From Enoplolaimus lenunculus (lineage: Eukaryota): a stretch of 64,000 nucleotides of DNA. Under the pieces are notes generated by a model. The model was not told the DNA's origin and made no database searches. It saw nothing but the letters and a program-made list of their open reading frames with translations. The DNA lies in contig JASANG010000621.1 of NCBI GenBank assembly GCA_030248215.1, positions 1 to 64,000 on the forward strand. Direction: 5' to 3'. The translations under genes and the position numbers were made by a program. Below, piece by piece: positions 12,543 through 61,984 of this stretch; position 1 is the stretch's first letter; each line of letters starts with the position of its first letter.

Positions 12543-12560
12543 CTCTCCTCACTTTATTTT
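12543..12560 (-). other. Polypurine tract
   Basis: Minus strand AAAATAAAGTGAGGAGAG directly precedes the TG of the 3' LTR. Confidence 0.8.
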
Positions 12561-26296: not shown

Positions 26297-26314
26297 ATCT
26301 CGGTGGGACCTCCA
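26297..26314 (-). other. Primer binding site, tRNA-Gln
   Basis: TGGAGGTCCCACCGAGAT lies 2 nt from the 5' LTR end and is complementary to the metazoan tRNA-Gln 3' end (ATCTCGGTGGGACCT-CCA). Confidence 0.88.
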
Positions 26315-26316
26315 AA

Positions 26317-33421: not shown

Positions 33422-33454
<33 letters not shown>

Positions 33455-40020: not shown

Positions 40021-41341
40021 GTGTAAACGTATAGTAAAAATAGACGGAAAGCGGATTTTGAAGTATGAAAGTTTCGGCTAATGCGTAACAGTAGTATATA
40101 TAAGTACATTTTGAAGCCTAAGTATAATTAACTTAGACCTACGCTTAAGCAAAAAATTTGTGTAAAGCTTAAACCTCTGTTGCAGTCTCACAGAAATACG
40201 TTCCGCCTCTGGTCATTACACGGCTCAAAGGCATGCAAATTGTAAAAGGGCATTGTAAAATTGTAAATGAAAAATTAACGGAAGCAGTGAAATTTTTAAG
40301 ATTATACAAGAATTTAGTAATTTTTATATTTATTCCGTATCGACAATCGCAGCGTATATCGAAATATTGTGAAATATGTAAGCACGCGATTTGCAACTAT
40401 TCTGAGTATAAAAAGAACTAATTTTCCAGTATTTCTATGACGTAAACGGACACCGATTTTTACTGGAAACTGAAACGCGTATCCGGTAACATCGTGAATG
40501 AATAGTAAAAATCGTACAAAAAATTAATCTTCAACTTTCAATACTCAAAATTATCAACACTGGAAGTAGACTGTGAAAAATACTTGATATCCCTACGGTA
40601 ACTGGAATTATAGTTGCTTCGGCTATTCACACATGCATAAGTTTTTGCTATGGAAGCTTGCATCTGCATTGGGCTTACGTTTTACAAGCTTAAAATTCGT
40701 GCTGATTGCCCTTACACGTTTAGGCACCGGAAAAAACAACCGGAAACGCTTTTGCTCTATTTTTCTCATGGTTTGAAACACGGAACAACATTTTACAGAT
40801 ATATTAATTGTAGCAAAAACTAAGGAAATGGTTTTCCTTACGCGTTTCCTCTATAACGAGCTTCGTCCAATAGTGTGAGTTTATATAGGGTTAAGTAGTC
40901 GCCTACCCTCGACACCTATATCTCAGCGAAGTTCCGAGCGAGAGGTTATTCCGAGCTCGGGGTAGGTATCGTCCAGACTAAGTTGGGGAAAACTAGGCGT
41001 AGGGCAAGTATGCATGATTGACATAAGCATATGTACGTGTGTACAACTCATGGTCTTACTCTGCCAAGTATATTTAAGTGTTATTGATTTTATGACTTAT
41101 AAAGAAAATAAAAGGGGTAGATAGTACCTCACTTAGTCCCCACCAAGCGGGTGGCTCACCTACGCATGAGCAGGGGAGAGAATTTACTAATTCTGACAGA
41201 ATTCAACACCGGTGTAAGTAGTTTATTGAAAATCTATAAAGCTAAGCGCCTTTTGCGGCTGAAAATAGATAGAAAACATAACATAACATAAACCATTAAC
41301 ATATATCCTACTATCACGTTGTCACCTAAATGTTTACCTAG

Positions 41342-41584
41342 TCAACCATTTACCTCTTGCGTGCGCGAATCAGATTTCGCATCAGCTTCAGCCGAAGTTC
41401 CTGGTTGAGGCGATTCGGGACCGGATCGGCTCCCAGTATCTCTGGGCCGAAACGGCTGAGCCTTTGGATCGAGCTTAGATGGAGAGCTCCGAGGCGAAAC
41501 TACATCAGCTTCTGGCTGGACTGGAAGCGGACTATCTGTCACGACTTCAAGCTTTGAGGTTATTGATGAGTCTTTTCGAGACAT
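41342..41584 (-). CDS. LTR-encoded small Ser/Pro-rich protein with PAM2-like motif
   Basis: ATG-initiated 80 aa with SKLDPKAQPFRP; positional counterpart at 60831. Confidence 0.5.
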   Translation of the reverse strand: MSRKDSSITSKLEVVTDSPLPVQPEADVVSPRSSPSKLDPKAQPFRPRDTGSRSGPESPQPGTSAEADAKSDSRTQEVNG

Positions 41585-41728
41585 TTTATAACAAGTATTA
41601 ATTAAAACTAATTTTGACTAGTTGTATAGCACCTGAATGCAATTGGGTTAAAACCCAGTATAGTAACTCTATCCGGAAAAGGAGATTTGAATCCGAAATC
41701 CGAAAACCTATTGAACTTTATTATTATA

Positions 41729-41929
41729 CTACAAATTAACGCTTACCGTGACTTCTGGGATCTCTGCCGGTGGAACCGGTAAAGGATGGAGATCCGGCTG
41801 ATCAAGTGACAAGCCTACCCAGCAGGGTTGATGCAGCACGGTCCACCCGCACCAGTCAAGGCCAGCCGCCCATGACCAATTGCGTGTTATTTGAACATAG
41901 AACTCAGCTGCAAATAGCTTATGCGACAT
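41729..41929 (-). CDS. LTR-encoded Trp-rich micro-ORF/exon
   Basis: RNWSWAAGLDWCGW...CWVGLS...PLPVP...IPE aligns with the 60471 peptide; ends at a GTAAG donor. Confidence 0.55.
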   Translation of the reverse strand: MSHKLFAAEFYVQITRNWSWAAGLDWCGWTVLHQPCWVGLSLDQPDLHPLPVPPAEIPEVTVSVNL

Positions 41930-44900
41930 ACTAGAAACTTTCAAGCGTGACTTAACCGTTACTAGCAATCCCAATGAAAACCCTTGTATTCAAATCCCTG
42001 GAAAATAAAGCATAAACATCTTTGCCGTTAAATCAAAACTCTTATTTCGCAGACTGATTCTAATTATTCCGAAAGTTCAAAGACCCCTAATGAAAAATTA
42101 TTTACAAATTTGCATAACCGGTCCCATAACTCGGGACCGATTGCCCGTAAATTACATGAAAATCACATATTCCAATCATAGAAAACAACATGAAAAACAC
42201 ACACAACAATTCAAACTTCACTACTATTCGCCATATAACTACCAGCCATGACAGTTACATGAATAATTTTAGCCAATCGCAACCAACTGTTGCACGGCAA
42301 CGCTTTTTAAACTATCCAATCAGAGACTGCCAACGTAGCGAAATGTGTAATCTTAGTAGCTACTAAGATTTCATCAAAGAATGTAACCTTTTGATAAATA
42401 ATTAATATTTTAGAGTTTTTAGGGTGAAAGGTAAGTTTTCTAAAAATGCATTGCCCCTCATTCCGTGTATACATCCGGCAGTAGTACGAGCTCTGTGCTA
42501 CTTACCAACCATTACCCACTCACATACTCACCCAAAACCTTGTGTGCATGCAGACACAGTCTCCACAGCATTAGACCTTCAAGAACCGCAAAATACAGAC
42601 TCAGAACTCACCGGACAACACAGTCACAATCCAGTGACCGTGTGTACGGGGTTCTGCTTTTACCAAGGTGTAACAACAGGTTCCTGCGGCTCGCGGTGCC
42701 TCTTCACATCAAGATGTCTGCATCCCGGCTCAGAGACTATATTTCCCAGCTTCACGAGCCGTGGTCACATTGGTATCTTTACAAATAGTATATACTTGTT
42801 TGGTTGAATATGCTAGCGGTTTTTGCTGTTTGTGTTCACTGTATCCGGAATAGAGCTAACCAGGACGCGTATACAATTCCTATTTACTCAAGTGAGGCCT
42901 TGTTTGACTCAGGATAGTTTTAGTTCGAACGGAATTTCACTTTCGTCTGAAACTCCGACATTATTTCTGTGCCGAATCTCCGACAGAATGTAATTCCTAT
43001 ACTGAAATTCCGCCATTTTCGATTATGTACGTGTGCTTTTTTGTAATAATAATTTCACGTTCAAACTAATTCTGTTCCACCTTGATTTTTAGAGCAAACT
43101 TTCTGTTCGATCTTGATCTAGGGCATTGAGAGAGATCGAAAATGGATTGGAAATCCACCTAATTCGGAGAATTGTACTTTATGTTGGAAGCAATACACCT
43201 AGAGCTGCCTGCGTAAAATAAGGCATAAAAACCTACTCCGTTTCATAACTAGAACTAAAACCATAAAGTATTCAAAAGAAAAATTACGGTTCCGACGAGA
43301 AAATTCAATTCGAACTTCAATTCCGACAATAATATTTTTCAGTTGAGACCTTTAGATTTAGCATCCATCAACGTCTTTGTATTGAGACATGGGTGTACAT
43401 TTTTCAATTTTTCCTCTTTATTAAGGAAAAAGCGAAAAACAGTAAATTTTACGGAAAAAACTAACACTGGTTGTAATCATAGACTATTACACTGGCAAAT
43501 TATTAGCGTACAATTTTGCATAAACAAAAGCCGCAAACTACGTCTAATGGTATATAAAGAATGGTTATGTAAGTTAGCGGATCGTTCAGATGATGGTTTA
43601 ATGAATGTGTAAAGTTTAACGATTGTTACCATAGAGAATTTCAATACCGAAACTCCTAAAATAATATGTATCCGTCTAAATTTCTACAGGAACCGGAAGC
43701 CGATTTGCCGCAGTATATTTTATATAAAATTTCATAACTCTAGACAAATGCTGTCTCCATATTGTTCAGAAATTGTAAAACTCCAAGTTCTTCATGTTAC
43801 CAAACTTCAAAAACAACACACTCTGACATTGAATTTTCACCAACGTTAAACAGGTGAAATTTGTAAGAAATTTGAAAAAAGTTCGTTACAGAGGTGCACG
43901 CGTTCATTAATACCGTAGTACTTAGGTATTCTGTAATTATCTTTTGATTTGTAGACCGTATTTTTGAGTGTGTCTCACGTTTTTAGTAGAATTTTTTCTC
44001 GTAATTAAATTTTTTAAAATTTATTAAAATTGTGATCAAATATGTAACTCAGCAACTCTCCTAGTGAGGTATTTTATACCAGTGCACGAAAACGCAAACT
44101 TGACCGCAGAATCAGTGTACAGTATACATGCAAGATGTGGTGAAGTGGCAGATTCAAGAGTTTCCGATGCAGAGATTATTTTTCGTATTAAACTGAAACT
44201 TTTGCGGTTAGCTAAAACTTGAAACTGTTTTATAGATTTTTAATGTTTTAAGCTGTTTTAGCTCTTTAGCTGTAGCACGAAATCCTCTTTGAGATGTGCC
44301 TAAATTCTGTTTAATCCAGCCACCGGCTCACGAAATGCAAATATTTCTCCAAGTTCCCCCTGAAAACCGAGCAATGGTAACCCCGTTAAAATTCCACCAA
44401 AATTCCTAAAAGCCGCGCAATCCTGTTAACCCCGTTTAGAATTATGCACGAAAATTCCCAAGTCGTGCAATCGTTACCCCGTTATAATTACACCAAAATT
44501 CTGTCAAACTAACCCCGTTAGAAAGGCTTACTCCGGTAAAAGAATACTGAGTCTAAACTCGTTAGAATCTGGAGACTTTATCCAAAACTGCTGATTTCAA
44601 AGATTCTCCCAATTATTCCATAAGCTCCAGTATATAAAATACCGTGCAGTCTCCGGCGCAATAAGCAACCCCAAATAAAACAATATTTACTTTGGTTTCC
44701 TTCACATCTCCAGCCTTCGTGGCAATTTTTATTCCAACTGACTCCGTCCAATAAACCAAAATACTACAATCTTTCAAAAATTCCACTAAATTCTGTAAAC
44801 AATAATGCAAAAACAAAAGAAAATATCCGCAAAATCCAAGTCAGCTGATCTGATGCTACTAATTCCGGTGTTGGGCTACCCTTCTGGGTGTCTCGAACTA

Positions 44901-46235
44901 ATTTGCATCCTTCGACCGGCCCCCAAATTGGAGCTCCGTACGGCCACGCAGGGCCCGGGTGAAACTAACATTGCGGCACAGCCACCATGAACTCGGTTTT
45001 GTACTTTTTACGCCCTAAAACAACACCTAAGCTTGACTTAAGTTCTAAGAGAAACTTGGCGGAGCCATTGACTCCCATAGGCGTAGTTTGGGGTTTAGTT
45101 TTAGTTTATATTTTAGTTTTAGTTTGAAATATGGTATTGAGAGTGGCACAGCCGCCTATAGTCGGTGCAAAATTTATAATTCAAATCTCAAATTTTAGTA
45201 CGTGATATCATACAAGACGCTAACGAGTACCAACCACAGTCCACAACTTTGTAGATATTTCCAAATGATGAATATCATCTGATATTACAGTACATACGGT
45301 GGATACCACATCAGCATAGCAGACAACTCAAAATTTTTTAATTTGATAGCGGGCTAACGTGCAAACAAGATGTTACCGATTAGTGTAAAAAAGACAAGAC
45401 CAAGATTGGACATTAAAAACCAACGGAAAAACCTGTTTTCTGGGTTTTTTTTGCTTTTTCCGAAAGAATGGAAAAACAACAAACTTTCTGTAAATATATT
45501 TAATTTTGCAAGCCAAACTTGCCCAACAACGGCAAACGTTGCAATTTTGTTTGTCTCTGGATCCTTGAATTATTTAGTAATTTCCGTTTGATTGGATATA
45601 CTAGACGTTTTTTACTGCTCGTGTTCACAGTATCCATGTTGAAGCTGAATTGGAGGCAGAAATAATTTCTACTACATGCCTTAGTTTTCTCATGATTTTT
45701 GTTATATTGAAACCATTACTGTATAATATATTTTCATTTTGTGCTTTTTGCTTTATCAACGTTTCAGCTGAATAATGTGTATTTTTGAACTAAACTTTGA
45801 TCAATTTTTTGTAAACAATGAAATTAAGTACTAGCCCTGTTAGTAGATTTTGGTCGATTCTATTGTTGTCGAAAAACCAACCCTGGACAACACATGTTCC
45901 GCGCTGTCTCAGTTATACCGTAAACCTCGCAGCTATCAACAGGTTGGGGCTGCTAAATGAAAACTTACATCGTAAAAATGTTTAATACTAAGGGCTGCGA
46001 AAGAAATATATCCAGTCTATTCTTGAAGTCGCCAGTACTCAGTTGAAAAATGACTTATATTATATAGAAAATATAGAACTCAACTAAGCAATTAATCGGC
46101 AATAGGTATCAAATTCAGGCGGAATTTCTACTTTTGCCATTTCTGGCATCGAAAACATTTACGATCCAGTAAAAGCCCAAAAAGCTGTTCAGCCAATAAA
46201 ATTTCTGGGCAATTAAATAATAGAATTTAGTTTAA

Positions 46236-47066
46236 CCCTTTCTCACATGAATATTTTCTATTTCCCCTGAGACCTACTTTTATGCTAGGATTCGAACTGC
46301 AGTGACTGGAGTGGGAGGCGTATACCATCACCACGCAGCTGTAGGAGCTTGACGCTCGAGCCCGAGGGGGCTCTCACGTCTTGTGGTGATTTAGTACTAT
46401 GTATACGTGTTGCAATTGTTAAACACGGTGCGATATATACTATTTAACGTATGTACAGTGCGCTGAGTTGCCTACAGGCAACTCAATGTGAGAAGAGGTT
46501 ATAGATAGTAAACTGAAAATTTTTCGCTTAACCCTTTCTCACATGAATATTTTCTATTTCCCCTGAGACCTACTTTTATGCTAGGATTCGAACTACAGTG
46601 ACTGGAGTGGGAGGCGTAGGTATACCATCACCACGCAGCTGTAGGAGCTTGACGCTCGAGCCCGAGGGGGCTCTCACGTCTTGTGGTGATTTAGTACTAT
46701 GTATACGTGTTGCAATTGTTAAACACGGTGCGATATATACTATTTAACGTATGTACAGTGCGCTGAGTTGCCTACAGGCAACTCAATGTGAGAAGAGGTT
46801 ATAGATAGTAAACTGAAAATTTTTCGCTTAACCCTTTCTCACATGAATATTTTCTATTTCCCCTGAGACCTACTTTTATGCTAGGGATCGAACTCCAATG
46901 ACTGGAGTGGGAGGCGTATATTATCACCACTCAGCTATAGGAGCTTGACGCTCGAGCCCGAGGGGGCTCTCACGTCTTGTGGTGATTTAGTACTATGTAT
47001 ACGTGTTGCAATTGTTAAACACGGTGCGATATATACTATTTAACGTATGTACAATGTAAGAAGAGG
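46236..47066 (-). mobile_element. Three tandem copies of a piggyBac-like MITE containing a tRNA-derived segment
   Basis: Units start TTAA-CCCTTTCTCACAT at 46236, 46532 and 46832 and end ATGTRAGAAGAGG-TTA; A-box TAGCTGAGTGG and B-box AGTTCGATCC on the minus strand. Confidence 0.75.
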
Positions 47067-47358
47067 TTAAAACCAAAAACATTTGGTTATAAACTTAAGC
47101 ACTGTTGCTTTTTGTAAGTTTACTCAAAAGACAGATGATTATATTAAATTGGTAAAAAGTAAATCATGAATAAACTTATTCAAATATTAATTTTATACAA
47201 TTTTGTACCACTCAAAGTGATCGTTTTGATCTTGTCAAGTTCAGGTGAACGCATTTTGAACAGCGGCGTGACCACAACTTCATTAATGAAGGGTGAAAAT
47301 TATTTAAATCGCAAGCGCGGCTAATGAGTATAAAATCTAAAACAAGGAAAAATACCTA

Positions 47359-47798
47359 CTGTATTGACCCGAATAAGAGGGGGAAAGGTAATAAGAGGGG
47401 GGTTTCTGTTTTGAGTCCAATTCAATTCGAGTCCGTATCCGTAATAAAAGAGTCCGTAAGTGGATAGAGTCCATAAACCCAAATTAGAGTCCATAAATGT
47501 CAAATAACCCTAATTGTAGCGCATAAATGACTGCAGGACCAAATAACTTGAGCTCGAAACTTTAAAGCGTATTTAAATTTTGAAAGTACACTCCTAAGTA
47601 TAACCTTGTATTATCGCTGACACAAGACAAATAAACGTCTAATTCAACGGATAATTGCAGTAACGGATATATATCAGTAACGAAGGGCGGCGGAGCGTGG
47701 GTTAAAAATAAATAACAGTCTGTAACCGAATAACAAGGGGGGTTCCCTCTGGAGAGGCCAAATGAATATCAGTCCCCCTCTTATTCGGGTCACTACAG
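47359..47798. mobile_element. Tc2/pogo-like MITE (other copies 50308-50643, 58552-58995; partial at about 55690-55865 and 56650-56960)
   Basis: TA-CTGTATTGACCCGAATAAGAGGGGG...CCCCCTCTTATTCGGGTCACTACAG-TA. Confidence 0.82.
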
Positions 47799-48150
47799 TA
47801 TTTAGCAATATTTCTATCGGGACTTTCCCAAACACTTAGGCCTAAACTTAACTTAATGAAAAGGGTTTTAAAATTTTAAGCCGAAGCCATTGCTGCCTAA
47901 AACTTAACCCTTAAGCTAAATGATTGGAGAACGTGTACAACAACCTACTTTAACTGAGAGGGGGTCGGTGTGCTCGTTCCCCAATAATGACCAAGTAGGC
48001 TAATATGATTAGCAGCCTCGAATGCCCTATTAGGCGGATGCCTGAATCTGTAAGTCATTGGGTTTACCGAAAACTTGAATGCTGATTGGGAGAGCGCGAT
48101 GCACATGGATTTCTTTCTGGATACAGCCGTTGTTGCCCTATGCTATTCAT

Positions 48151-48460
48151 CAGGGTACAACCGGAGGTGTGCTTCCGGCTCCGGTTCCGGTAGAATTTTT
48201 GCCGGATGTTCCAGCAATTTCGGTAGTAGAATTTTGCATAATGTTGCAAAATTTATCTGTTTAGCGTGTTTCGTTCTACTTTTGTCACAATGTTCAGGAA
48301 AGAATTTCCGAAATTTCGCAGAAAATGAGCGTAAAACGAAACAACTTATTGCAGATATTGGCTAAAATTAACTAATTAACCATCATTTTTACTACCTAAT
48401 TGCGCCTCACCTCCGGCCCAGGCTCCGGCTCCGGCATTTTTCACCTCCGGTTGCACCCTG
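48151..48460. mobile_element. hAT-like MITE
   Basis: CAGGGTACAACCGGAGGTG...CACCTCCGGTTGCACCCTG TIRs with a perfect 8-bp TSD CTATTCAT. Confidence 0.88.
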
Positions 48461-48559
48461 CTATTCATGATCTTATGTGAGGTAATTAGTTACGCAGAGG
48501 ATTAGTTTTAGATACCTCAATCTACCCAGATCCGCGTTCACTTTCAAAAATACACCAAC

Positions 48560-51500
48560 ATGGGGTTTACAGGCAACCTAAGCGACCCTCGCCAGCCTCG
48601 ACAACAACAACCTTTTGGCAATGCTCAGTCGTTCCATCCGCTGGTGGTCCTTGTGTCCCGTGTTCGAGCAATTGTCGGCCGTATTCAATGCTTTGGACGT
48701 CGCAAGACGAGTGTCAAAGTAGTCTTAACTGCCTACTTGGTGATAATGCACGGTCTATGGAACCTAGCGGTAAGTAAATTTTTGAGTGCCCGTATTTGCC
48801 ACTGTATGTTAATATAGTACCTACCTATCATCAGTTAGTAATCGGTTGTTTTACAAAATAATGACGACAACTGTTGAATCTGAGAGTTATAAGATATAGT
48901 CCTACGGCGATCAGACAGTGTTTTTCACGATTTATGATTTGATAACTAATTTGGCGCGTTGGCAACCATACAGGATGGTGCCAAATCAGTCATGCAACCA
49001 TAATTCGTAAGCTATTTGGTGGGGAATAATCAGTTGAAATCATGAGAACTGAGAAGCTCAAATAGGCAAAACATTTCAAAATCGGACTATTTTGGACGAA
49101 CGCCGGCTTGGAAAGAATAACCTAAAAGACCCGGCTTTTCAAACACTGTCGTTTTTTATTTTTAATTTTAAATACAAGTCTGCAAAAAGTTGGCGCAGCG
49201 ACTAATCTGCACAAATAGTACTTACTGAGTTTAATATAATGACAAATTTATTCAGACTGTATGCGTTTTGCAAGAAGTTTCACTTGTTAAAATTTCAGCA
49301 CCAATGCCCGCAAAAGCGATTGTCGAAATTACAACACAGGGTCACACAGAACAACTGCAATGGGCATGCAATTCATACACGCTTCTGTGCGAAGCATGTT
49401 CTCCTTCAATGGGCACATGCCCTCCTGTAAAGTATACGTACTCTTCTTTTGCCGAATGTCGACTGTTTAGTCTGTGTTCAAATAATTTATCACTGCAACC
49501 AAGTGATGAGATACGTCGCAGTGTTGCTGAAAACAACGAAATTGACCTGTGGTCAACGACTGGTACAAATTACACAAAATGTCAACGCGCAGTATTAATT
49601 AACAATTTATCAAACATAACGCAGTACTACAAAGTCTCAACATGTTGTGAGAACTTCTTTAAGCTCAAGCGTCATAGCTTAGGCGTAGGCTTAGTCGAAG
49701 GTAAAGGTTAGCCTTAGGCTTATGGCTTACGCTTAGGGCTTAGATTAGGTAAGCTTTGTCTTCAAGCAATACCTAAGCCCATAACTCTGTGCCGGAGAAA
49801 GCAGCATGACCCTATTGGCTTAAAGAAATGTTATATATTGAACTTTATACATAATGTGAGTTTAATAATTTTTTAGCATATCTACGTTTGTGTCCCTTGA
49901 CTCTCTGTGATACACCAATGGCTTTTAAATTGGCACCGACAAAAACGATCGGTTCGCAAGAAGGACCACTGTGGGCACACCCTTATCGGCGGTTGTTAAA
50001 ATTAAAAAAATAATTTAGTTTTTATTTTTACCAGAAACCAATCAACACTGTTGGATATGTTACAACGGCAGTTGCAGAGGCGCGTCGGATTTAATGTGCA
50101 ATTCAGAGGACAACGTTTCGTTTCAAACACTTTCTGGATGCATCGAAATGTGTAATGCGAATATTCCAGGTATCTGGTGTATTTTATCAAACATTGTTCA
50201 TATTTTTATACATTAAGTTCAAGTGACTCCACTGATTGCAACTGTAGGAGTGTAGAGCGCGACAAAAGCTTTGACCTGCACGAAGAAATGGGGGACAATT
50301 GCCTCTACTGTAATGACCCGAAAAAGAGGGTGCGGGGTAATAAGAGGAGGTTCCCATTTTGAGTCCCAATCAATAGGAATCCGTATCCCTAATAAGAGTC
50401 CGTAAGCGGATAGAGTCCCTAAATCCTAATTAGAATCCATGAAGGTTAGTTATACCCAATTGTAGTGCATAAATGACTCCAGGACCAAATAAAATTGAGT
50501 TCGAGTCTTTAAGGGGTACTTAAATTTTGGAAGTACATTCCAAAGTATAATCTTTCTTAATCGCTCAAGCTATTGAAACAAGAGAAATAAACGTTTAATT
50601 CAACGGATAGTTTCAGTCCCCCCTCTTATTCGGGTCACTACAGTACATTCCTATATACTCTTACTATCCAGCAGATTTTCCTGAATACACATCTGTTTTG
50701 GGCCCGTACACAGAGCAGGGCCAAGTGGGGTGAGTTCCTAGAGCAGGGCCGAGTGAAATGAGTTCTTTTAAAAATATTTTAGCCCATGTACAAAAGATTA
50801 ACACCACTTGACAGTCATGTGAAATACTATTGCTGAAATTTAATCAATCAACCTCCATGCATGTTGTACTGGTTAACCTTTAGCTATGTCTGTTGTCTTC
50901 TGAAAACAATCAGTTTAATTTTCAAAGTATGGTATTAACCAATCCCTTGGTGCTAAAGTCATCTAAAATCCCCGCGTATTCTTTCTGAAATTTATCTGTC
51001 CCAAGCTTATTTAGCTTGCTACAGTTCCAGACTGTTTTGCGCCTCTCATGAAAACAAATTCAACTTTAATTTTCAGAGTGCAGCATCAACGAACGCCTTT
51101 ACATGGACGAATGCGGCCCTTTTTGTGATTGCAGCGAATACGTTATGAACCGTGGAGCATGTGCCCAATTGTGTTTTGAGCAACCGCAATGTTTATGTAA
51201 ACCTGGTTACGTTTACCGGTCGCTATCGGCAATGCGCCAGTGTGTCCCAGCTCATTCGTGCTGGGTTTCAAAGCGCACAGTTAGTCCGTCTGGTACGTTG
51301 TGTTTGGGGTTGTTGTTTATTTTCTCTCCACAAAATTCCTTCATTAAATCAACTCAAATAATAAAATAGGTTTGCTCCAGGTTTTATATGTAGCGTTAGA
51401 CACCGCCTTAGCCCCAGGCATAAACCGTCTGTATACAATGAACAGGAGTAATAACATAGGTTTAAGCTTAGGCTTCAATGTACACTGCAGAAAACGGTGA

Positions 51501-54500
51501 GTTAAATTGACTCTTTCCGAAATAGGCTTTTCTGGACTACACAAACTGAGTCAAATTCGACTCCGCCAGAGTCAAACGTGCGACTCAGTGAGTCGAATTT
51601 GACTCTGGCGGACTCGAATTTTGACTGAATTTGAGTAGCCCCCAAAAGCCTATTTTGAAGAGAGTCAAAATGACTCACCATATTTTGCAGTGTAGAGTTA
51701 GTCTTGACTAAGACAGATTTTAGCGTCAAACTCACATTAGTGTAGAGAACATAAAACTGTTTTCATGTTCGACTCACTTCTATTAGTGCGTATTTCAAAA
51801 ACATCAACTGATGTTTTATCATTGCATTTTAATTTAAATATTAAAAACCTTAAATCTGTTGAGTTTCCTATATTTTTGTTCAACAGAGGGACACTGAACA
51901 CTCTCATTTTATCATATGTTACACCCTGGTTCCAAATCAAACCGAACAGAGATATTTGCTATTGTTTTCAAAATAAACCGTGCTGGTCGACACTAATCTT
52001 CCGTACCATCCGGATCTAATCCAACTAAGGCACCTCTAGAAAACGCATAACTTACACGAAACCCGTAATCAGCGTAACATGCAAAAGCAAACTAAAAAAT
52101 TCAGGATGGGAATGATGGATTTTGAAACGGTTAACGAACGGTGATCAGCATTTTAGGGGTTTCAGGCAGTCACCAAGGTCCACTGGCGCCCATCTGGCTA
52201 CGCGGCCCTAGTATATAGCTTATACTTTGATAATATTTTAGACTACTGCTGGATTCCTGATTCTGGCAAACATTGCATGTTATTATTCGGCCTTGATTGT
52301 TCAAATTTACCTCGTACAATATTTTTCTACAGCTCGCTCAAAGAGTGTATGCAAAGTATTGGTAGTGATTTGAAAACTAATAACACGGGTATATTTAAAA
52401 TTAGCTTTAAATGTGAAAAATAACTGGAACGGATGATACTTTTTGGACAAGTATGTGCCACTGAGTAGGCTCATTTGTTGAAGAGAAATTTGAATGCGCT
52501 GCACACATAGGGCTGCTAATTGAAAAGAAGCTATCTTCAAATTATTTCAAAGTAAACAAATACCAGGCTCTTATTACACTTCGAGCAGCATTTTAAGTAA
52601 AAGCCTGTTCTTAGTCTTAAGCTTATGATTGCGCATAGGTTAAGCGTAGTAAAAACGTTAAAACTAAATGCACTGGAAATTTATAAAAAGGTCCAAATAT
52701 TAATGTCTATTTTTAGACTGCGGACCTAACGAAATGTTATACGACGTCGGGTGCGGTCCGTACTGTTACTGCAATACTGCAACTGAGTCAACGCTAGTCA
52801 CGCATAGAAACGACCCAATGGTTAAACATAACGCACCTCACGCAACGTGTCCTGCGCTGTGTTTTGCAGTTCCAAAATGTTTATGCAAACCTGGCTTTGC
52901 GTACAAGTTTAAAGGCAGTGATCAGTGTATTCCTGAGACATCATGTCCGGTTTCTTTTGACAACAGATTGCATTCGAATTCTATACATGGTAGGTCCCAT
53001 CTTAAGATCAGGGGGAACGTTTTTCGGCGTACATTGGCCCACTCAAGACTGTGCCCATCGGGTTGTCGTGGTTTCCTCCAAAACCAAAATTCGAATATGC
53101 GCTTTTACAAAATTCGGAGCCGCGAGATCAATTTTGGCTCTTATATACTTCCCCTACATTTTGGTACCTGTGTATGAATATGCTACCAAAACGGCTTAAA
53201 TTTAATTTCAATGCAGAATTTAATACATAAATAGGTATTACTGAAAAATATCTAAAACTGAGAGATTGGGTTTTGTACAATTTCTGCTTTGGCTTAGGAA
53301 CAGGCCTTGCGCTTTCCCCCCCATTATTTATAGTAAGCTATATATAGCTAAGTTTGAATGAACTTAAATTTCCATTAGGGGGCTACCCCCCGCAACCATC
53401 GTAACTTCAAAGGCATTCCAAGCAGAATTTAGTCTCGCCGCCCACAAAGCTCCGAGCACTGATCTGTTCTTTATGCTTGAGAGCAAAACAAAAAGTCAAA
53501 GTTATTCACTGCTGTTACAATAGTAAATTTTTTAGTGCAGGAGAATAAACTTAAAGTTACGGGAGGGTTCACGTGGCTGTTGCCCTTCGGTGACAGCAAT
53601 GAAAGATAGTTGTTCAATATGTGGGAGGTGTTTAAGTACAAGATGTGCAAAGCGAGACTGTGTTCCTAGTTTCAGCAGAAAGTGCAGCTGAAACAATTTT
53701 TTAGTTTTAACTATTTCTCAGTTTTACATATGCAGAACTTTGTTTTGAAAGAACATTTGATCTATTTTTACGGCGTATTCTTACAAAACTGTTGCGGCTA
53801 TAAGGTGTGGGAACCGTTCAAGAGTGGAAATTGTTTTGACTTCTGCAATGCGACAAGTGTTTTTCCAAAGAAAATGGAGCCTTTTGTTGGTTGTCTGAAA
53901 ACAGGTACGTAGACAGAGGGGAACCAGGCAGATCAGTCTCCCTTCTGGAAGAATTTCGATTCCTCTCATAAAAATTTCAACTTTACTAAAGTCGTCGAAA
54001 ACCCTTGTATGCCACAACTGTAAGACATTTAGTCTCCTTAGCAAGGTAAGCTGAACGCGGGCCTTTCTCAAATTTTGAGAAGGAATATATGTCTGTTTCT
54101 TTGTATACACCTCTGGCATCTACCTACATTTACAGCTGTGACAGAGGTTTATTCTAGAAACCGATATCGCTAATTCAATACCAGATCGATCGCTTGCACG
54201 TCATGGAACCAGAAACTCGATTCCGAAAATGCCATCAGCAACTCCGCCTCCAAAATACACAGCCGCGACAAGCGCACCTGTGCCGCAAATACAAAAGCAG
54301 CATGCGATGCGAACGTTTAGACCTTCGCTAATGCCTGTAATCCCGACGAAACGGCCAAAGCTTAGCATCGATCTCAGTTTGGATTCTTTACCGGGTACAG
54401 GTTTGAATCAAAGCTTGTGCCTGCTTATTGTAGAATTATTGTAATGTTCAAACACTATAGAAATTGCTAATTTGAAATTTGAAATCGGTTGGAACCGGCG

Positions 54501-55355
54501 CCGAACAAACGACTAAAACACTTGTTCTTAGCTTTAAATTTAGCAAACCGCTAATAAAGCACGGAATAAAAATAAAAAAACCAACCCAAATAGAAATGAG
54601 CGTATTAATTGGTAGGGCTAAGGCTCTATTCGCCTTAAGTCACAATACGCCACATTTGGAACTTTCGCAAGCAGGATTTCACCTTCCATTGATCAGTTTA
54701 TCTAGGAGTTTTAAGTTTTTCAATTGGTACCTCACATAAGAAATCTGCATTTCGAAATTTCTATAGAACGTAACCGCCCCGTTTATCAAATCTAGATACG
54801 TCCCTTGATGGAGCTTTCGCACGCAATAAAAACCTACCCCATACGGCTGTATCCAGATTTCGGAAATGGAGCGGTTACGTTCTATTTACAATTTCTAAAT
54901 GAAGATTTCTTACCTAAAACTCCTGTATAAGAAGATCAACGGAAGGTCGAACCCTAAAACAAGTTATTGCGTCCAGTAGGCTAACCTATCTTACTTGATT
55001 AGCTAAAACTGTTTTTTCAGCGAACCAGCGATTTGTTCCCATTGTCCGACGTGATATTGGACCAATGACATTTACATGTGAGCGACAGCCAATGAGAACA
55101 CATTGTCGCTCCACAGGCCGCCGTAGTCAATATACGACCCGATGGTACGCCCTGAATGGCCAATGCGTTTCGTATCCATTTGGTTACTGTCGAGGCGAAC
55201 GGGTTGCGTTAATGAAAGAACTAAGAACCAAAACAGATTGTGTTCGATTGTGTTTACAGACGCCTGCTAGGATTTCGTTAGTTCAACCACCTGCACTAAA
55301 CAATAGAATCAGTTTACATCCGGCATACTTTAGAGGACAGAGGCAAAATTTGTGA
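48560..55355 (+). CDS. Multi-exon cysteine-rich protein with two TIL domains and degenerate Kunitz-like modules; exons about 48560-48769, 49256-49562, 49877-49951, 50035-50169, 51077-51292, 52717-52949, uncertain 53.7-54.4 kb, 55021-55355
   Basis: ECSINE...CGPFCDC...CAQLC...CLCKPGY...CVPAHSC and DCGPNE...CGPYCYC...CPALC...CLCKPGF...CIPETSC fit TIL spacing; RWYALNGQCVSYPFGYC...TKTDCVRLC is Kunitz-like; phases are consistent except in the 53-54 kb part. Confidence 0.65.
51483..51692. mobile_element. Palindromic MITE with CACTG termini (degenerate copy at about 62215-62400)
   Basis: TA-CACTGCAGAAAACGGTGAGT...ACTCACCATATTTTGCAGTG-TA; internal GAGTCAAATTCGACTC palindromes. Confidence 0.75.
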
Positions 55356-56135
55356 TTACCATATTTTGAAGAAATAGGAGTTTTGATTACTACTATAGAA
55401 GGCGTCCCATAAGCTCAATGAAGGTTTAGATTTTGCATTATTTTTTGTTCAGCCTTAAACTTAAGCTTAGTAGTTATTAAACTAATAAGGCTTTCACACA
55501 GGCATGGGCTTACGTTTAGGACCAGTTTTAGCCTTCTGGCCCTGGCTGGCCCATGTTACTTTTAGGGCCGTCTTAGTTTCTGGTGGGTCTGCAAAAGAAT
55601 AGGCTTACATTCTAGACATTTTTTGCTTACGCTTATTTGCACACGATCCGCCAGTGACCCACACGCGGGCGCAATTTTATGAATTATGTACGAGGCAACT
55701 TAAGTACGCTTTAAAGTTTTGAACTCAAGTTTGTTTGGTCCTGTAGTCATTTATGCGCTACAATTTTGACATTTATGGACTCTAATTAGGGTTTAGGGAC
55801 TTATCCGCTTACGGACTCTTATCAGGGATACAGATTCCTATTGATTGGGACTAAAAATGGGGACCCCAGTAGCAATTTTTCACAAAACATTTAGGGAGGT
55901 GCAACTTTGAAAAAAATTTACAAGCGAAATTAGCGAGAAGCCAAACTTAAACTTGCGTTTACATCGCTTTGGAAAGATGTATTTTGGTCTCTATATTGAG
56001 TGTGCAGCCTACTACGAGACTTCTGCATGCCGACTATGCCCCTCTTAAACCACATGGCATCGCTACCTTTTTGTATTATTAATATAAACAGTAGCTCAGG
56101 CGAAATCTTTCGAGGTGTTTTTTTAGAGCCGCCCC

Positions 56136-56565
<430 letters not shown>

Positions 56566-58346
56566 TTTTAATGCCGATGCAAACGTTACTTCTGGTTCCT
56601 TTACTAAAAACTCTTTTTTTTTGGTTTTGCCCGAAAAGTTAAGTAGGGTTGTGACTCGAATAAGAGGGGGACTGATATTTATTTGGCCTCTCCAGAAGGT
56701 ACCCCCCTTGTTATTCGGTTACGGACTGATATTTAATTTTAACCCGCGCTCCGCCGCCCGTCGTTACTGATATATATCCGGTACCGCAATTATCCGTTGA
56801 ATTAAACGTTTATTTGTCTTGTGTCAGCAGCTTGAGCGATAATACAAGGTTATACTTAGGAATGTACTTACAAAATTTAAGTACACTTGAAGGTTTCGAA
56901 CTCAAATTTTTTGGTCCTGGAGTCATTTATGCGCTACAATTAGGGTTAATTGACTTTTAAGAACGCGGTTACGGACTGTAGGAAAAACGAAAATTTGCAT
57001 CCGGAGCATGCCGAAATATTCTTAAATTTGGCGAAGAAACATCCGTTCTCACACTTGTATTCGTGCCAAATTTGAATCTTGGAAGAACAATGGAATACAG
57101 TCGAGCAGGCCTATGCAAGAGCTCTATTATGGTTCGATACAGAATCTGCGAACCAAATTAAATAAACTACAGATACCAAGGAGCAGAAAAGAACCGGAAA
57201 CTTAGCGAAGAACCTGCGAAGGCGATTCTGGAATATCCTGAAACAACCAATAATCATTCGCATTGATTTTGCAAAATTTAACCAAAATTACTCAGACAGG
57301 TCTGGGGTTCAGCGAGCAACGAGGCCGGAAAAATTTTGATGACGCTCAGGAGTTATTTTTTGAGGGGGCAAAACAAAGCCTTCCAAATGCGTTAATCATT
57401 AGCGACTCTATTTTGAAGAACATTGACTTCCAGTGCCTAGCTATAGCCATAAACCGACATATTAGAAGGCTAACTTTAACTGGTGCAAAAATGGAAGACA
57501 TCATGTCTGCTGCGCCTTGTTCTTATTTTCACGGGAACTATTAATAAAGCGCCAAGAACGGGAAAGCAAAATTAGGCCCTTTAGCGGCTGATCAAAAAAT
57601 ACTAAAATTCGAGCATAACTTTCACAAGAAATGCCCGTTTGCATGGCTGCACTTGAGTTGGGTGCCAAATCGCGCTAGTTGTATGAGCGCTAGAATTAAA
57701 TTCGCACATTACTAGATTTAACTGTAAGCTGAGTGAGGCTTAAAGTTGTCTAAAGAAGGCGTGAATGTAATGTTTATAAATTCCAGAAAATATTTTGAGG
57801 CATGAGTTGAACTGACCATGATTTTAAAATTATGCGCAGCGGCTGTTGGAGTGTCGTTATTGAAATATATTCGGTATTGCAAATATCCGTTGAATTAAGC
57901 CTTTATTTGTCTTGTATCAAAACGTTGAGCGATAATGTAAGGTTATACTTAGCAATGTACTTTCAAAACTAATAGCCAATAATTCTTGCTATCGTGCCTC
58001 AGTTGATATCCAATAAAAATAACTAAATTCCGAAATGGGGAGGCTGGAAAGGTCATTCACGGTACTCCCGCAGTATTCCTGTAGTTAAGCAATAGCAGTA
58101 TTATATATAGTGTATTTTTCGGGAAATAAAATGCTCAATCACCAGGTGCGTTGCATATTAAAATGTTGCTAAATAGCGCGAAACCACGTGCGAAGTTGCT
58201 GTTTTTGTTTTAGAAGCATGAATGCCTTGCGACTAGCGTTGAAGCTCGTCGTCTGCTTCCTCCACAAATGATGGAGCTGTATGAAACTCTACCGACAAGA
58301 CATGCGAATGGAATAGTCAGTTTAAGCTTTAGACTAACTTGTTTGC

Positions 58347-58453
58347 GTAGGCTTAGGCTAAGGCTCATCTTTATAGTTAGGCTTAGGCTAAGGCTCATCT
58401 TTACCGTTAGGCTTAGGCTAAGGCTCATCTTTACGGTTAGGCTTAGGCTTAGG
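58347..58453 (+). repeat. 30-bp tandem repeat built on TTAGGC
   Basis: TTAGGCTTAGGCTAAGGCTCATCTTTACCG, about 3.5 copies. Confidence 0.85.
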
Positions 58454-60470
58454 AATATAATTATACTACTGTTCCGAACCTGTTCCATACATAGGTCGTA
58501 CCAATTTTGCGACGTTTTTCACTTTGAAATCACATACGGAGAATTTAAATGCTGTAGTGACCCGAACAAGAGCGGGGGTACTGATATTTATTTGGCCTCA
58601 CCAGAGGGTACCCCCCTTGTTATTCGGCTACGGACTGTTATTTATTTTTAACCCGCGCTCCGCCGCCCGTCGTTACTGATATATATCCGGTACTGCAATT
58701 TTCCGTTGAATTAAACATTGGTCTTGTGTCAGCGGCTTGAGCGATAATACAAGGTTATACTTAGGAATGTACTTTCAAAATTTAAGTACGCTTTAAGGTT
58801 TCGAAATCAAATTATTTGGTCCTGGAGTCATTTATGCGCTACAATTAGGGTTAATTGACATTTATGGACTCTAATTAGGGTTTAGGGACTCTATCCGCTC
58901 ACGGACTTTTATTTGGGATACGGACTCCTATTGATTGACTCCTATTGATTCGGACCCAAAATGTGGACCCTTCCCTCTTATTCGGATCAATACAGTATAC
59001 GACTTTAGTTTTAGTGCTCCATATAATATAGTTTAACAAATATAACTTCAAATTTAGTAGGAATAGTTACTGTCACAATTTTTAAATGCTCTAATACATT
59101 ACTGTACCACAATTTATAAGTGATCTAATACATTGCTGTACACCTTTATTTATCTATTTATGCGTGAAAAATGATACACAAACCAAAATTTGATAAAACA
59201 CCCGGCCCATGTATACTTGACTTCCGTCCGAAAATCCCACCGTTCCACCTAAAAAATTGATAACTCTTGTTTGTGGTGAGGTTTTGGGATTTTGTGATTT
59301 CAGAATTCATTGGAAGCAATTCCTTTGGCTTAGTCTTAGGCTTTTGGTTCAGGATTAGGCAATTCTTTGGCTCAAGATTAGGTCTAAGAATAGGCAAGGC
59401 TCCGTCTTAGGCTTAGGATTAAGCAAGGTTACGTCTTGTTGTACAGATGTCACAGCAGCCAGCGCCTCTAAATCTTAGTAGATTTAGGCTTTCGGCAGCT
59501 GGAATCACATTTCTATGAAAATGTGTGAGCTCTCGGGCTGCCCAGAAATTCTGAGAATAATATCTCGGCGGAAAGACCCCGTGCAAGCTTGTGTCGGTAG
59601 ACACAGCTTTGATTCGGAAGGCTCTGAGCCAAAATACGCAGCCCTTGAAGTTTCGGTGTCCCGGAGAGTTGCTACGGGCATGTGTGCACAGGTTGGACAA
59701 TTGCTGAAAATCGAAATGTTCAGCAGACTTTTCAGATCTGTCCGGTTGGAGCTGTAAGTGCTCTCGCGGCCCGGAAAGTATGAAAACAGTTCTGAGTAGG
59801 TGATATTGTGTTGATTTGAAACTAATTTCAGTGTTTTTGGGTCAAAAATAGTAGTTTTGGATAACTTGAATTTCGCGAAATATCATTTTCATCTGAATTT
59901 TACCAAATTCAGATATTTTGGCTGTAAAAGTGTGTAATAGGTTTGTAAATGTGCTGAATTCGATAGAATGCGTCTAAAAACGCTAAGTTCTACCTAAATT
60001 TTCGTTTTCTGCGTATGTGAAAACCTATAGAAATTTCGATTACCACCGAAATTTATTATAACTATTAGCTAGCTATTGAATATATCACTTGTACAGGCTT
60101 GTTTCGCGAGTAATGGAATGGCGTGTTTATGCATACGTGTAACGGCAGTTTTGTTTTGAATTTTCCTAATACGTGTGTTAATTTTGAATTTAATAAGATT
60201 ACGTGGTTTTCTTTGATTATTGAAAACACTTTTGTAGGAGTTTAGGATAAACCGAAACCGGTTATGCAAATAGGGTCGTAATCTGTATAGTTTATCCTTC
60301 TCCCTGTTTTTACCGTAGTCCGCGGCTCACTTGGTAGAATTCTGACCAGTGCTTAGATTTCCTTTATTTGGGTCGCTTTCGCGGGTTTTCATTACGTTGG
60401 GTAGTTTAGTGATTTTTCTTTGTTTTCTTACAAACAGTTTTGCAAAGCGACTTTGAGTTTGAGTAGCAGA

Positions 60471-60650
60471 ATGCAGAATTTTCGGGGTGTGAATAACTCC
60501 CAGCGGCAGCAGCGGAGTTGGACCTGGGCGACCGGCGTCAACTGGTGTGGTTGGTCAGCGGCGGACTCACCTTTCTGGGCGGGATTGTCACAAACCAATC
60601 AACGGATTCGGCCGTTACCACGGCCCGAATCGGTCATCCCCGAATTACTG
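60471..60650 (+). CDS. LTR-encoded Trp-rich micro-exon
   Basis: MQNF...RSWTWATGVNWCGW...FWAGLS...PLPRPESVIPELL, then a GTAAG donor; homologous to 41729-41929. Confidence 0.55.
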
Positions 60651-60830
60651 GTAAGAGTTATTTATTTACTGGCTTACACCATGGTCCTTGCTTTACACCG
60701 GTGTTTAACTGCCCTCGAGATTATCGAGAAAGTCAAAGCGGGCTTGTAAATTTTTGTATTGTTTGTTTTTAGCCGTGGAGTAGAATTATAACTAGTGTCA
60801 CTTATAGGCAACTAACTTTACTCGGTTGAA

Positions 60831-61010
60831 ATGGCAAGGAGTACACCATCATCCCCGTTAAATCCCGAAGCTGATGAGTTTCAACCTTCCACCTCTGGGG
60901 TTCGGTGGGCGGTAGCTCACTTAACGCCAGAGGTTGAAGCCGAGCTCGAAGCTCTACAAAAGCGTAACGCCGAGGAGGATGCGTTGGTAAGGTTTATTCG
61001 GTTTCTTTAA
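60831..61010 (+). CDS. LTR-encoded 59-aa ORF with canonical PAM2 motif (absent from the ORF track)
   Basis: Hand translation MARSTPSSPLNPEADEFQPSTSGVRWAVAHLTPEVEAELEALQKRNAEEDAL, GTAAG donor at 60987, unspliced stop at 61008-61010. Confidence 0.55.
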   Translation: MARSTPSSPLNPEADEFQPSTSGVRWAVAHLTPEVEAELEALQKRNAEEDALVRFIRFL

Positions 61011-61984
61011 TTCGGGTGTACTTGTTGCCAGAATTTAGGTGTTCGTTTTCTTAACCCAGTGTTACGTGTAGTTTTTGCTAATAAACTAATAGGTTGAGTT
61101 TATGCACATAGTATTTACTTCATACACACACGTTTAATTATTCAATTTGATTTCGGGTCCGGGACTACCGCCCCGTGTCTTTGTATCTATCGTCCTTGAG
61201 TTAACCCGCATTTTTCTCGTATCTCTGAGTGCTCACGCTGGTCACAAATGCGCTGAGCCTGGGTTGATCTGAATTACCTGAGTTCTTAAATGTTGTAATT
61301 CAGGTGCTAGCCGAATTCGTGCACCTGAAGCGTTTTACCGGCCAATAGTCGAGTTTTAGCCAAGTTGAGTTTTCCGCGGAATTTTATATCAGCAGTTGGC
61401 CACTGTTATTTTTGATTTCGAGTAGAATTTAGGGAATGTGATTGGAATCGGTTATTCGTAAATTTGCGTCGCGTATAGAATTTGGATATCAGTGTCGCGA
61501 TGATAACTTTTGCGTGAAACTTAATTAGTTGGAAATTTGCGGCGCTCATAAATCGCCGTTATTCGCGCCGCCCTGATTTTTATCCGACTGTCACCCGGTA
61601 GAGTGACAGCGTGTACTTTCTAGTCAGATTCGCTGGCGGGATCTTACAGTGAACTTGTGTCGATTTGCCCGCATTTTTCCGTGATTTGCAACTTGAGGAA
61701 GCGCTTAAGCCTAGGGTGCTCGGCTGGACTCTTCCTCTTCAGTGGATTGCTTTTGGGCTAAGTGATGTTGCTGTCCTGAAACATGGGTGCATTTCGACTC
61801 AACTACACTGGAGTGAAAGCTATTTTAGCGGATCCTCGTGATTCCCTGTGTTGGTGACTTTGGAACGAACCTACCCCAGTCATGGGCCTAGCATAGCGCA
61901 ACGCATTCGATCATTTTCTATCCATAAGCAGAAAGTTGCCGAGGGTAGGCGGCGCCTCTTTTTACTTTCTGACTTATACTTGTG

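Follow-up and report, generated by a model that had tools for sequence, protein, structure and literature searches.

Two elements in the window (the whole stretch of 64,000 nucleotides that was analysed), here called E1 and E2, scarcely resemble each other in DNA and carry the same pair of small reading frames, one rich in Trp (W) and one with a PAM2-like peptide (P). This raises the question of whether such frames are genes maintained inside long terminal repeats. The coordinates, 5-bp target-site duplications (TSDs) and peptides given for both elements by a first-pass annotation were recovered as described (Table 1). The basis for the reading preferred here consists of the element ends and TSDs, the copies, the exon layout, the conservation of W in its codon pattern, and the retention of exons next to replaced introns.

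Table 1. Positions of the elements, exons and motifs in the window
Feature	Position	Strand	Remarks
E3	9487..10085	plus	Third copy, truncated; corresponds to the 5' 600 bp of E2-family elements at 76% identity
E1	40874..42783	minus	1910 bp, TG...CA; likely solo LTR
3'-end motif, E1	40897..40966	minus	Short stem around AGGGTAGG loop, common to E2
Predicted last exon, E1	41222..41259	minus	Acceptor 41259, 11-codon tail, AATAAA 41227-41222
P1 exon	41354..41584	minus	77 codons, ATG to phase-0 GTAA donor at 41353; Ser/Pro-rich
PAM2-like motif, P1	41444..41473	minus	Motif match; no Pfam match
W1 exon	41747..41929	minus	61 codons, ATG to phase-0 GTAAG donor at 41746
15-bp block in E1 (ACCGGTTATGCAAAT)	42108..42122	minus	Exact match to E2; 193 bp upstream of W ATG
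E2	59440..61978	plus	2539 bp, TG...TA; likely solo LTR
15-bp block in E2	60257..60271	plus	Exact match to E1; 214 bp upstream of W ATG
W2 exon	60471..60650	plus	60 codons, ATG to phase-0 GTAAG donor at 60651; acceptor-like site 60437
P2 exon	60831..60986	plus	52 codons, ATG to phase-0 GTAA donor at 60987; acceptor-like site 60772
PAM2-like motif, P2	60858..60887	plus	Pfam PF07145, 14.9 bits, E 0.021, cut-off 20
Predicted last exon, E2	61059..61085	plus	Acceptor 61059, 3-codon tail, AATAAA 61080-61085
3'-end motif, E2	61870..61953	plus	Common to E1; fold z -0.71

Ends, copies and LTR status of the elements

E1 starts with TG at 42783 and ends with CA at 40874 on the minus strand, between identical 5-bp repeats at 42784-42788 and 40869-40873 (CTATT on the minus strand). 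E2 is flanked by CTTGT at 59435-59439 and 61979-61983, and its terminal TA is a one-letter departure from the TG...CA of E1. The insertion site of E2 is a TTAGGC-rich repeat, a type of repeat that hints at a nematode. An ENPP exon in the window shows ~37-49% identity to priapulid, chelicerate and mollusc proteins, a spread that does not place the host. Numerous sharp-ended copies of both elements occur across three DNA runs (X1, X2 and X3), which come from one study and at most two samples, possibly the window's own source. Loose contig ends were recorded at the 5' terminus of E2 (19 contigs at 59440 in run X1) and at both termini of E1 (8 contigs at 42783, 3 at 40874), the flanks agreeing poorly, and joints from 59437 to 61984 in relatives of E2 resemble an empty site. 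The third copy, E3, carries several 1-bp indels and contains neither a W nor a P exon.

No gag/pol or transposase was found inside E1 or E2, whose longest frames are of 133 and 140 codons, and a Pfam scan of four long frames in the two elements gave no match. Both hold an internal AATAAA. Neither a parent element nor a PBS or PPT was seen, the consensus lines at the loose ends being too mixed to reveal the latter two. A gypsy-like element of the window, whose LTR-like repeats span >1.2 kb, was rejected as the parent, its LTRs being unrelated to E1 and E2.

Solo LTR is the most parsimonious label for E1 and E2, and their assignment as LTRs is held with good confidence. There is only a slim chance that they are cargo elements, non-autonomous and with captured host exons, for example of a Ginger/TDD-like type. 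The lack of a visible parent, the gene-like intron-exon layout and a length of 1.9-2.5 kb, long for an animal LTR (271 nt in Atlas and ~490 bp in Cer1, in the accessible part of PMC10309623), agree with such elements, but the terminal inverted repeat extends over 3-4 bases and none was found beyond these. The directional layout with its internal AATAAA and common 3'-end motif, the failure of word-index and HMMER searches to find a host homologue of W, and the similarly long repeats of the gypsy-like element also argue against a cargo origin and for LTRs.

E1 and E2 likely belong to two deeply diverged retrotransposon families. Their DNA similarity is patchy, as had been annotated earlier: the top blastn alignment covers 74 bp at 69% across the W exon, and the further patches comprise 15 bp that match exactly and, close to the 3' ends, a match of 16/18. 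Compared in six frames, the elements reach a best local score of 149, against a mean of 44 and a maximum of 55 in 30 dinucleotide shuffles. The 15-bp block, which we take to be an octamer joined to a Grainyhead-like site, is likely a promoter element, and a conserved block at 42106-42322 in a divergent relative of E1 ends at it. At the 3' end of E1, a complementary CCTACCC is located ~50 nt upstream of the stem-loop (fold z -1.93), and E1 and E2 differ in both bases of one stem pair.

Exon layout and evidence for selection on W and P

The exon order is the same in both elements: W, which is Trp-rich and begins with ATG, is followed by P, which also begins with ATG, and then by a last exon bearing AATAAA; the order of the first two and the donors at their ends agree with the first-pass annotation, and all donors are in phase 0. 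GC content is 0.53-0.58 in the exons and 0.29-0.38 in the introns. A purine occupies position -3 in all four ATGs, and ATG is absent between acceptor and start, as in W1, where an acceptor-like site is present at 41998 and no ATG precedes the start. The AATAAA of the last exon is the only one in E2, whereas a second copy in E1, at 41722 directly past the W donor, suggests that W1 could end unspliced. Since E2 has no in-frame acceptor for fusing W to P, the two would remain separate there. The TTAGGC-rich repeats do no more than hint at a nematode, so that trans-splicing at these acceptors is no more than possible. No third W exon was found within the window, the next profile match having an E of 0.4, and summed depth over E1 displays no exon preference, with the top bin intronic in X1 and X2.

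W1 and W2 are identical at 20 of 44 residues in a gapless alignment, and base identity at codon positions 1, 2 and 3 amounts to 27, 30 and 18 of 44, respectively (positions 1 and 2 versus 3, Fisher p 0.015). The corresponding dN of 0.46 and dS of 2.05 give a dN/dS of ~0.23 over a 44-codon segment whose start was picked by hand and whose dS is close to saturation. The W frame is the only one free of stops in both copies.

In divergent copies, alignability begins at the ATG and ends at the donor, and the introns are replaced. A divergent relative of E1 aligns over W1 (41735-41929) with 27 differences and no gap; its joint from 41929 to 42106 encloses 182 unrelated letters, has 195 letters on the short side, and has an edge that coincides with the A of the W1 start codon. 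Gaps in this contig number 0 in 195 bp of exon versus 12 in 453 bp of non-coding sequence (p 0.02). A divergent relative of E2 aligns gaplessly over W2 (60494-60656, 34 differences) and over P2 (60830 to 60933, 16 differences), and the joint between the two, with 155 unrelated letters, is bounded on one side by the end of the donor hexamer and on the other by the base preceding the P2 ATG; a further joint, 60071 to 60494, holds 444 letters. The joints from 60270 to 60471 and from 60630 to 60831 also end on the ATGs but have <30 letters on one side and were left uncounted. None of the 22 indel places listed (12 of 59 indels for E1, and 12 of 50, at 10 places, for E2) falls in the W or P frames. 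A divergent contig across 41436-41662 has 7 gaps, which are not among the listed places.

The dN/dS between W1 and W2, the alignment edges at ATG and donor, and the replaced introns together indicate that W is, as judged from sequence, under purifying selection, and it is very probably protein-coding. P is probably coding too, with evidence weaker than that for W. A fold common to both W exons can be drawn, in which both bases differ at 3 of the 24 pairs, and P2 contains a hairpin; it is nonetheless very unlikely that an RNA structure or DNA motif, rather than protein, explains the conservation, in view of the third-position excess, the low dN/dS, the conservation edges at an ATG and at donors, the single-strand W folds that differ between copies and are unremarkable (z -0.68 and -1.55), and the absence of an Rfam match.

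The first-pass annotation had proposed coding genes maintained by selection inside LTRs, and had named dN/dS near 1, frequent frameshifts and a DNA or RNA motif as outcomes that would speak against it. For W, the dN/dS is well away from 1, no frameshift appears in W or P among the listed places, and a nucleic-acid motif is improbable. The proposal is supported for the W exon, and divergent copies retain both exons next to replaced introns. It does not extend to the solo copies themselves. At 8 or more exon positions E1 or E2 departs from nearly all relatives, and the listed changes (3 synonymous and 5 non-synonymous) look neutral and resemble decay, suggesting selection on transposing lineages and not on the solo copies.

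These neutral-looking changes also agree with a different account, in which the cassette would be active solely as part of the 3' LTR in a full-length parent, through splicing from the 5' donor of that element as for MMTV sag or HIV nef, and solo E1 and E2 would be silent fossils. The acceptor-like sites before both W exons, the lack of a clear TATA box between the 15-bp block and W, and the precedent of sag in the 3' LTR of MMTV (from a reference title in PMC11569226) are in line with it. However, both families and their divergent copies keep the promoter-like block, which precedes the W ATG by 193-214 bp, and the last exon is followed by a poly(A) signal; a solo copy thus holds parts for its own transcript, and restriction to the 3' LTR is rather unlikely. 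The two accounts agree on the protein-level claims.

The PAM2-like peptide and searches for relatives

The sequence L-x-P-x-A-x-x-F-x-P is present in both P1 and P2, and no alignment between the two was found outside it. PAM2 motifs have Ala at position 7 and Pro at position 12 besides two key residues. The latter are Leu3 and Phe10 (accessible part of 10.64898/2026.01.10.698208), and all four are present in P1 as well as P2. The pattern L[NDS]P.A..F.P, fitted after the hits were seen, has two matches in a six-frame translation of the window, one per P frame, and none in 40 shuffles; the looser L...A..F.P occurs at the same two places, with 1.45 expected per shuffle.

The earlier identification of a PAM2 motif holds as to its residues in both P exons, and is weakened by the Pfam gathering score of 20 bits, which P2 does not reach and for which P1 has no match, and by a relative of E1 in which a 135-bp in-frame deletion of P1 codons 20-64 removes the motif (a single X3 contig, at depth 32). 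Binding of P to an MLLE domain is predicted, with somewhat better than even confidence. The sub-threshold or absent Pfam matches and the in-frame motif-less variant would also suit W and P as real proteins whose PAM2 likeness is due to chance or to another partner, such as the MLLE of UBR5/EDD, EDD being an MLLE protein besides PABP (PMC9753129, accessible part). This is improbable, as the loose pattern would appear in both P frames by chance with a probability of ~5e-7 from six-frame residue frequencies, for a pattern chosen after the fact, and the motif is the sole part of P common to both families.

Word-index searches, at near as well as at longer lengths, and HMMER over 1.84 billion representatives found no homologue of W, and a metagenome scan gave 133 pattern matches with none confirmed. 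A degenerate W codon pattern matched at least 151 loci (at least 120 metagenome and 31 viral), all rejected because the best downstream score was 10, as compared to 61 for W1 versus W2. The ESM Atlas gave nothing at or above 0.9 for W1 and no usable match for P2, NCBIfam was blank, and PHROGs gave a single match (E 0.08). The PDB sequence search had no match for P2, and the matches to a QSOX1 thioredoxin motif (E 0.5), MFAP4 (E 0.15) and an ankyrin repeat (E 0.07) were rejected because each query gave a different one. The WCG-x6-P-x-W spacing of the thioredoxin motif is a faint lead for W, and the AlphaFold2 model of W has a pLDDT of 45.

Proposed mechanism and comparison with known accessory genes

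The preferred reading, given an even chance as a whole, is an LTR-borne accessory cassette of selected W and P exons, in which the peptide of P competes for the MLLE domain of PABP. The transcript would start near the 15-bp block or be spliced in from upstream, and would use the acceptor before W or that before P, so that each ATG is the first after its acceptor. Both phase-0 donors would then join the common AATAAA last exon to yield two proteins of ~55-90 residues. P, Ser/Pro-rich in E1 and with an acidic C-terminal half in E2, would be a small disordered protein docking on host PABP and competing there with deadenylase-recruiting PAM2 proteins (PAN3, TOB, GW182-type), which would shield the element RNA from deadenylation; this last role is tentative. 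The step held with the least certainty is that W may be a Trp-based module binding a host factor of RNA decay or silencing.

In their accessible parts, PMC9753129 and 10.64898/2026.01.10.698208 describe PAM2 proteins as vying for one MLLE site, eRF3a antagonising PAN3 and TOB. PAIP2, eRF3, PAN3, TOB and ataxin-2 are among these proteins (PMC9753129), and P, as far as that text goes, is like them as a predicted small protein, Ser/Pro-rich or acidic, that bears a PAM2-like peptide. The W exons, with a G, S or T neighbour at 3 of 5 Trp residues each, are like the W-motifs of GW182 in the accessible parts of PMC5314787 and PMC4615383. Unlike GW182/TNRC6, each W exon has one GW and no UBA or RRM (no Pfam domain), and, unlike the GW182 silencing domain, the Trp cluster and PAM2-like motif are on separate, element-encoded ORFs. 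Given its fixed spacing, W is suggestive of a compact module rather than of additive low-complexity motifs.

HIV nef overlaps U3. MMTV sag is encoded in the 3' LTR, by the same reference title, and in the accessible part of PMC4615383 Nef binds AGO2 via GW motifs. By these excerpts, the cassette is like sag and nef as an accessory gene within LTR sequence, and like Nef in a Trp-based motif, in Nef directed at host silencing; unlike those vertebrate retroviral genes of one larger unspliced ORF, it has two micro-exons, introns and a poly(A) signal inside the repeat, is of an invertebrate, and shares no sequence similarity with them. The available portion of 10.1101/2025.03.14.642691 describes sORF1 and sORF2 of the Drosophila MDG1 group, with a short polyadenylated transcript; they are likewise a pair of small accessory ORFs of low dN/dS in an invertebrate LTR retrotransposon, but W and P differ in being inside a TSD-bounded terminal repeat, flanked by splice sites and ending at donors. 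CERV, which acts on the RNA of the nematode LTR retrotransposon Cer1 in C. elegans, is also a spliced accessory gene with an acceptor before its ATG, but it is made from five exons in the internal part of the element and is required for nuclear export, with no mention of PABP in the accessible part of PMC10309623. Precedents for accessory genes of elements exist in MMTV sag, the MDG1 sORFs and Cer1 CERV. In the literature searched, mostly without subscription journals, there was no PAM2-bearing transposon protein and no paper on a transposon-encoded link to PABP or PAM2; papers combining LTR retrotransposons with PAM2 were off topic by title or start of abstract.

In annotation, LTRs are treated as non-coding control regions, and solo LTRs are regarded as debris. 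If families that are unalignable in DNA have both preserved a spliced two-gene cassette, the repeat of an invertebrate retrotransposon can itself harbour accessory genes, as in complex retroviruses, and recombination would spread these genes as solo copies. The PAM2-type peptide, if true, would be a direct short-motif mimicry, by a transposon, of a central mRNA-stability hub. It is quite doubtful, yet conceivable, that the LTR works on its own as an anti-silencing gene and encodes a mimic, in two parts, of the GW182 silencing domain, in which W would soak up CCR4-NOT or Argonaute and P would occupy PABP. If so, each solo LTR could keep making decoys, and these would weaken the deadenylation that small RNAs direct at the element family and at host mRNAs.

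Ends, copies and class of the elements

At the DNA level, E1 (1910 bp) and E2 (2539 bp) resemble each other in patches only, namely 74 bp at 69% within the Trp-rich first exon (W), a 15-mer upstream of this exon that is identical in both, and a stretch close to the 3' end with 16 matching bases out of 18. Their best six-frame protein score is 149 as compared to at most 55 in 30 shuffles, a clear match at this level. The observation of the first-pass annotation that both hold a matching peptide pair in the same order is confirmed; the positions, 5-bp target-site duplications (TSDs) and patchy DNA likeness it reported were also found in the sequence. Three DNA runs of one study, representing at most two samples, hold 265, 230 and 161 E1-related and 1996, 780 and 594 E2-related contigs (likeness at least 80%). 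These relatives occupy many insertion sites with sharp termini, and empty-site-like joints span E2. The ends, TSDs, insertion sites, joints, internal poly(A) signal and the fact that no enzyme gene was found inside E1 or E2 fit an assignment of both as putative solo LTRs. Several 1-bp indels in the third copy mark the first 603 bp of the E2 family as non-coding.

Coordinates of the features in the window
Feature	Position	Strand	Remarks
E1	42783 (TG) to 40874 (CA)	minus	identical 5 bp on both sides
W1	41929-41747	minus	Trp-rich first exon of E1
P1	41584-41354	minus	second ATG exon of E1
E2	59440 (TG) to 61978 (TA)	plus	CTTGT copy on either side
W2	60471-60650	plus	Trp-rich first exon of E2
P2	60831-60986	plus	second ATG exon of E2
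W2 frame past donor	60651-60749	plus	32 codons, incl. hydrophobic stretch
Third E2-family copy, truncated	9487-10085		first 603 bp, 76% identity, several 1-bp indels
Gypsy-like element	10579-27600	minus
Its coding part	26275-14316	minus	one 2444-codon ORF, then helicase and NADAR ORFs
Its LTR-like ends	10579-11829; 26317-27595		three aligned patches, 78-90%; middle unalignable
TGG-starting PBS-like sequence	about 26314		follows upstream LTR-like end
CCG[TC]AAGG, ten copies	26897, 18855, 18733, 18646, 13935, 13510, 13338, 13031, 12850, 11121	minus	non-coding parts of gypsy-like element
Long 3' region of gypsy-like element	13850-12630	minus	several short stretches between acceptor-/donor-like sites
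Host ENPP4/5-like phosphodiesterase gene exons	29763-36443	plus	upstream of E1
Poly-C run, 424 bp	56138-56561		within dispersed-repeat copy

No parent of E1 or E2 was seen in the window; the gypsy-like element was ruled out as one, its LTRs being unrelated to theirs. Its domain order and cargo are unusual: the ORF is gag-like at the start and places an env-like stretch (no Pfam match) ahead of protease, RT, RNase H and integrase, and a 1136-codon superfamily-1 helicase ORF (AAA_11/AAA_12) and a NADAR ORF lie 3' of it. The patchy LTR-like ends suggest that it is a recombinant between two subfamilies. CCG[TC]AAGG is a candidate repeated tetraloop signal, all ten copies being on the sense strand, with one on the opposite strand elsewhere. 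The short stretches in the 3' region are possible further small exons. The host is an invertebrate, with no close relative in the homology matches; TTAGGC-rich repeats in the window are the one feature that suggests a nematode. The poly-C run is likely an assembly artefact.

Exon layout and coding character

In each element, 660-820 bp of 5' sequence precede the shared 15-mer, after which come an acceptor-like site and the W frame, which runs from ATG to a phase-0 GTAAG donor. An AT-rich interval of 162-180 bp, containing a second acceptor-like site, leads to the P frame (ATG to phase-0 donor); an intron of 73-95 bp separates this frame from several final codons and AATAAA, and another 350-900 bp extend to a shared stem-loop motif at the end. 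GC content is 53-58% in exons and 29-38% in introns; all four ATGs carry a purine at -3, and each is the first ATG past its acceptor. When W is joined to the candidate acceptors before P, a stop is met after 4-6 (E1) or 17-18 (E2) added codons; W and P are therefore separate proteins. A second AATAAA directly past the W donor of E1 allows an unspliced W1 message. Readthrough of an unused W2 donor is probably not conserved, since E1 stops after 5 codons and relatives cease aligning at the donor.

W1 and W2 can be aligned gap-free over 44 codons, counted from their first Trp up to the donor; 20 residues are identical, and base identity by codon position is 27/44, 30/44 and 18/44; conserved RNA structure is a weak alternative explanation of the W and P conservation. 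The dN/dS check proposed earlier, run on W1 versus W2 only, gave a ratio of ~0.23 (dN 0.46, dS 2.05), not near 1 and only rough, as dS approaches saturation and the 44 codons had been picked by eye. In a divergent E1 relative, 41735-41929 can be aligned gap-free, with 27 differences, up to the A of the W1 ATG; 182 unrelated letters and the 15-mer block (7 gaps in 217 bp) lie beyond, and its 5' block has 5 gaps in 236 bp (gap-free exon versus gapped blocks, p 0.02). A divergent E2 relative aligns without gaps over 60494-60656 and 60830-60933, the intron being replaced by 155 unrelated letters; one edge coincides with the last base of the donor hexamer, the other with the base before the P2 ATG. 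As to frameshifts, also proposed as a check, none of the 22 indel places among the rows listed lies in W or P (85 further rows stand outside this listing), but one E1-related contig has 7 gaps over 41436-41662. Also counting against coding are an in-frame deletion of P1 codons 20-64, motif included, in a contig of the third run, an intronic peak of summed depth on E1 in two of three runs, and the eight copy-specific exon changes among those listed (3 synonymous, 5 non-synonymous). W is concluded with high confidence to be protein-coding, and P with somewhat less. The interpretation of the first-pass annotation is partly supported: its claim of coding genes under selection holds for mobile lineages, on which selection worked; single copies decay.

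Putative products and related systems

No W homologue was found in any sequence library searched, PDB matches are weak and mutually disagreeing, and the structure model is unreliable. In W1 and W2 alike, three of five Trp adjoin a Gly, Ser or Thr, the feature by which CCR4-NOT-recruiting W-motifs are defined (PMC5314787). The spacing is fixed, however, and Cys, Gly and Pro are conserved, which is more suggestive of a compact module.

The accessory gene nef of HIV is located in the LTR. The same is described for MMTV sag (PMC11569226); the E1/E2 cassette shares this location, but its structure and sequence are unlike both. Drosophila MDG1 elements likewise carry paired small accessory ORFs, which however are unspliced and outside the LTR (10.1101/2025.03.14.642691), and the accessory gene of Cer1 is spliced (PMC10309623), as is predicted for the cassette, with other position, structure and sequence. 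Extra ORFs of plant elements are described at internal positions in a review (PMC7264820). The cassette works like sag, nef, the MDG1 ORFs and the Cer1 gene, yet belongs to none of these systems because position, structure and sequence differ. HIV Nef binds AGO2 via GW (PMC4615383). Unlike GW182, the cassette has no GW array, UBA or RRM, by which an identity as GW182 was ruled out; expression by the solo LTRs of a split decoy of the GW182 silencing domain is the boldest reading, and an improbable one.

The sole common part of P1 and P2 is L-x-P-x-A-x-x-F-x-P, which includes Leu3 and Phe10, the PAM2 reference positions (10.64898/2026.01.10.698208). The strict pattern is absent from the rest of the window and from 40 shuffles; 1.45 matches to the loose pattern are expected by chance. 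The PAM2 assignment of the first-pass annotation is upheld as a pattern in both P frames but not by the profile, as P2 scores 14.9 bits against PF07145 (cut-off 20) and P1 has no match. Nothing relevant on a transposon protein with PAM2 was found in the literature searched, whose coverage leaves out most subscription journals. Binding of the motif to MLLE, the poly(A)-binding protein domain that PAM2 peptides bind, is predicted with reasonable likelihood. PAM2 proteins, deadenylase recruiters among them, vie for a single MLLE surface, according to PMC9753129 and 10.64898/2026.01.10.698208. Holding little beyond the motif, P would act as a competitor at MLLE, and its most likely role, proposed tentatively, may be the shielding of element RNA from deadenylation.
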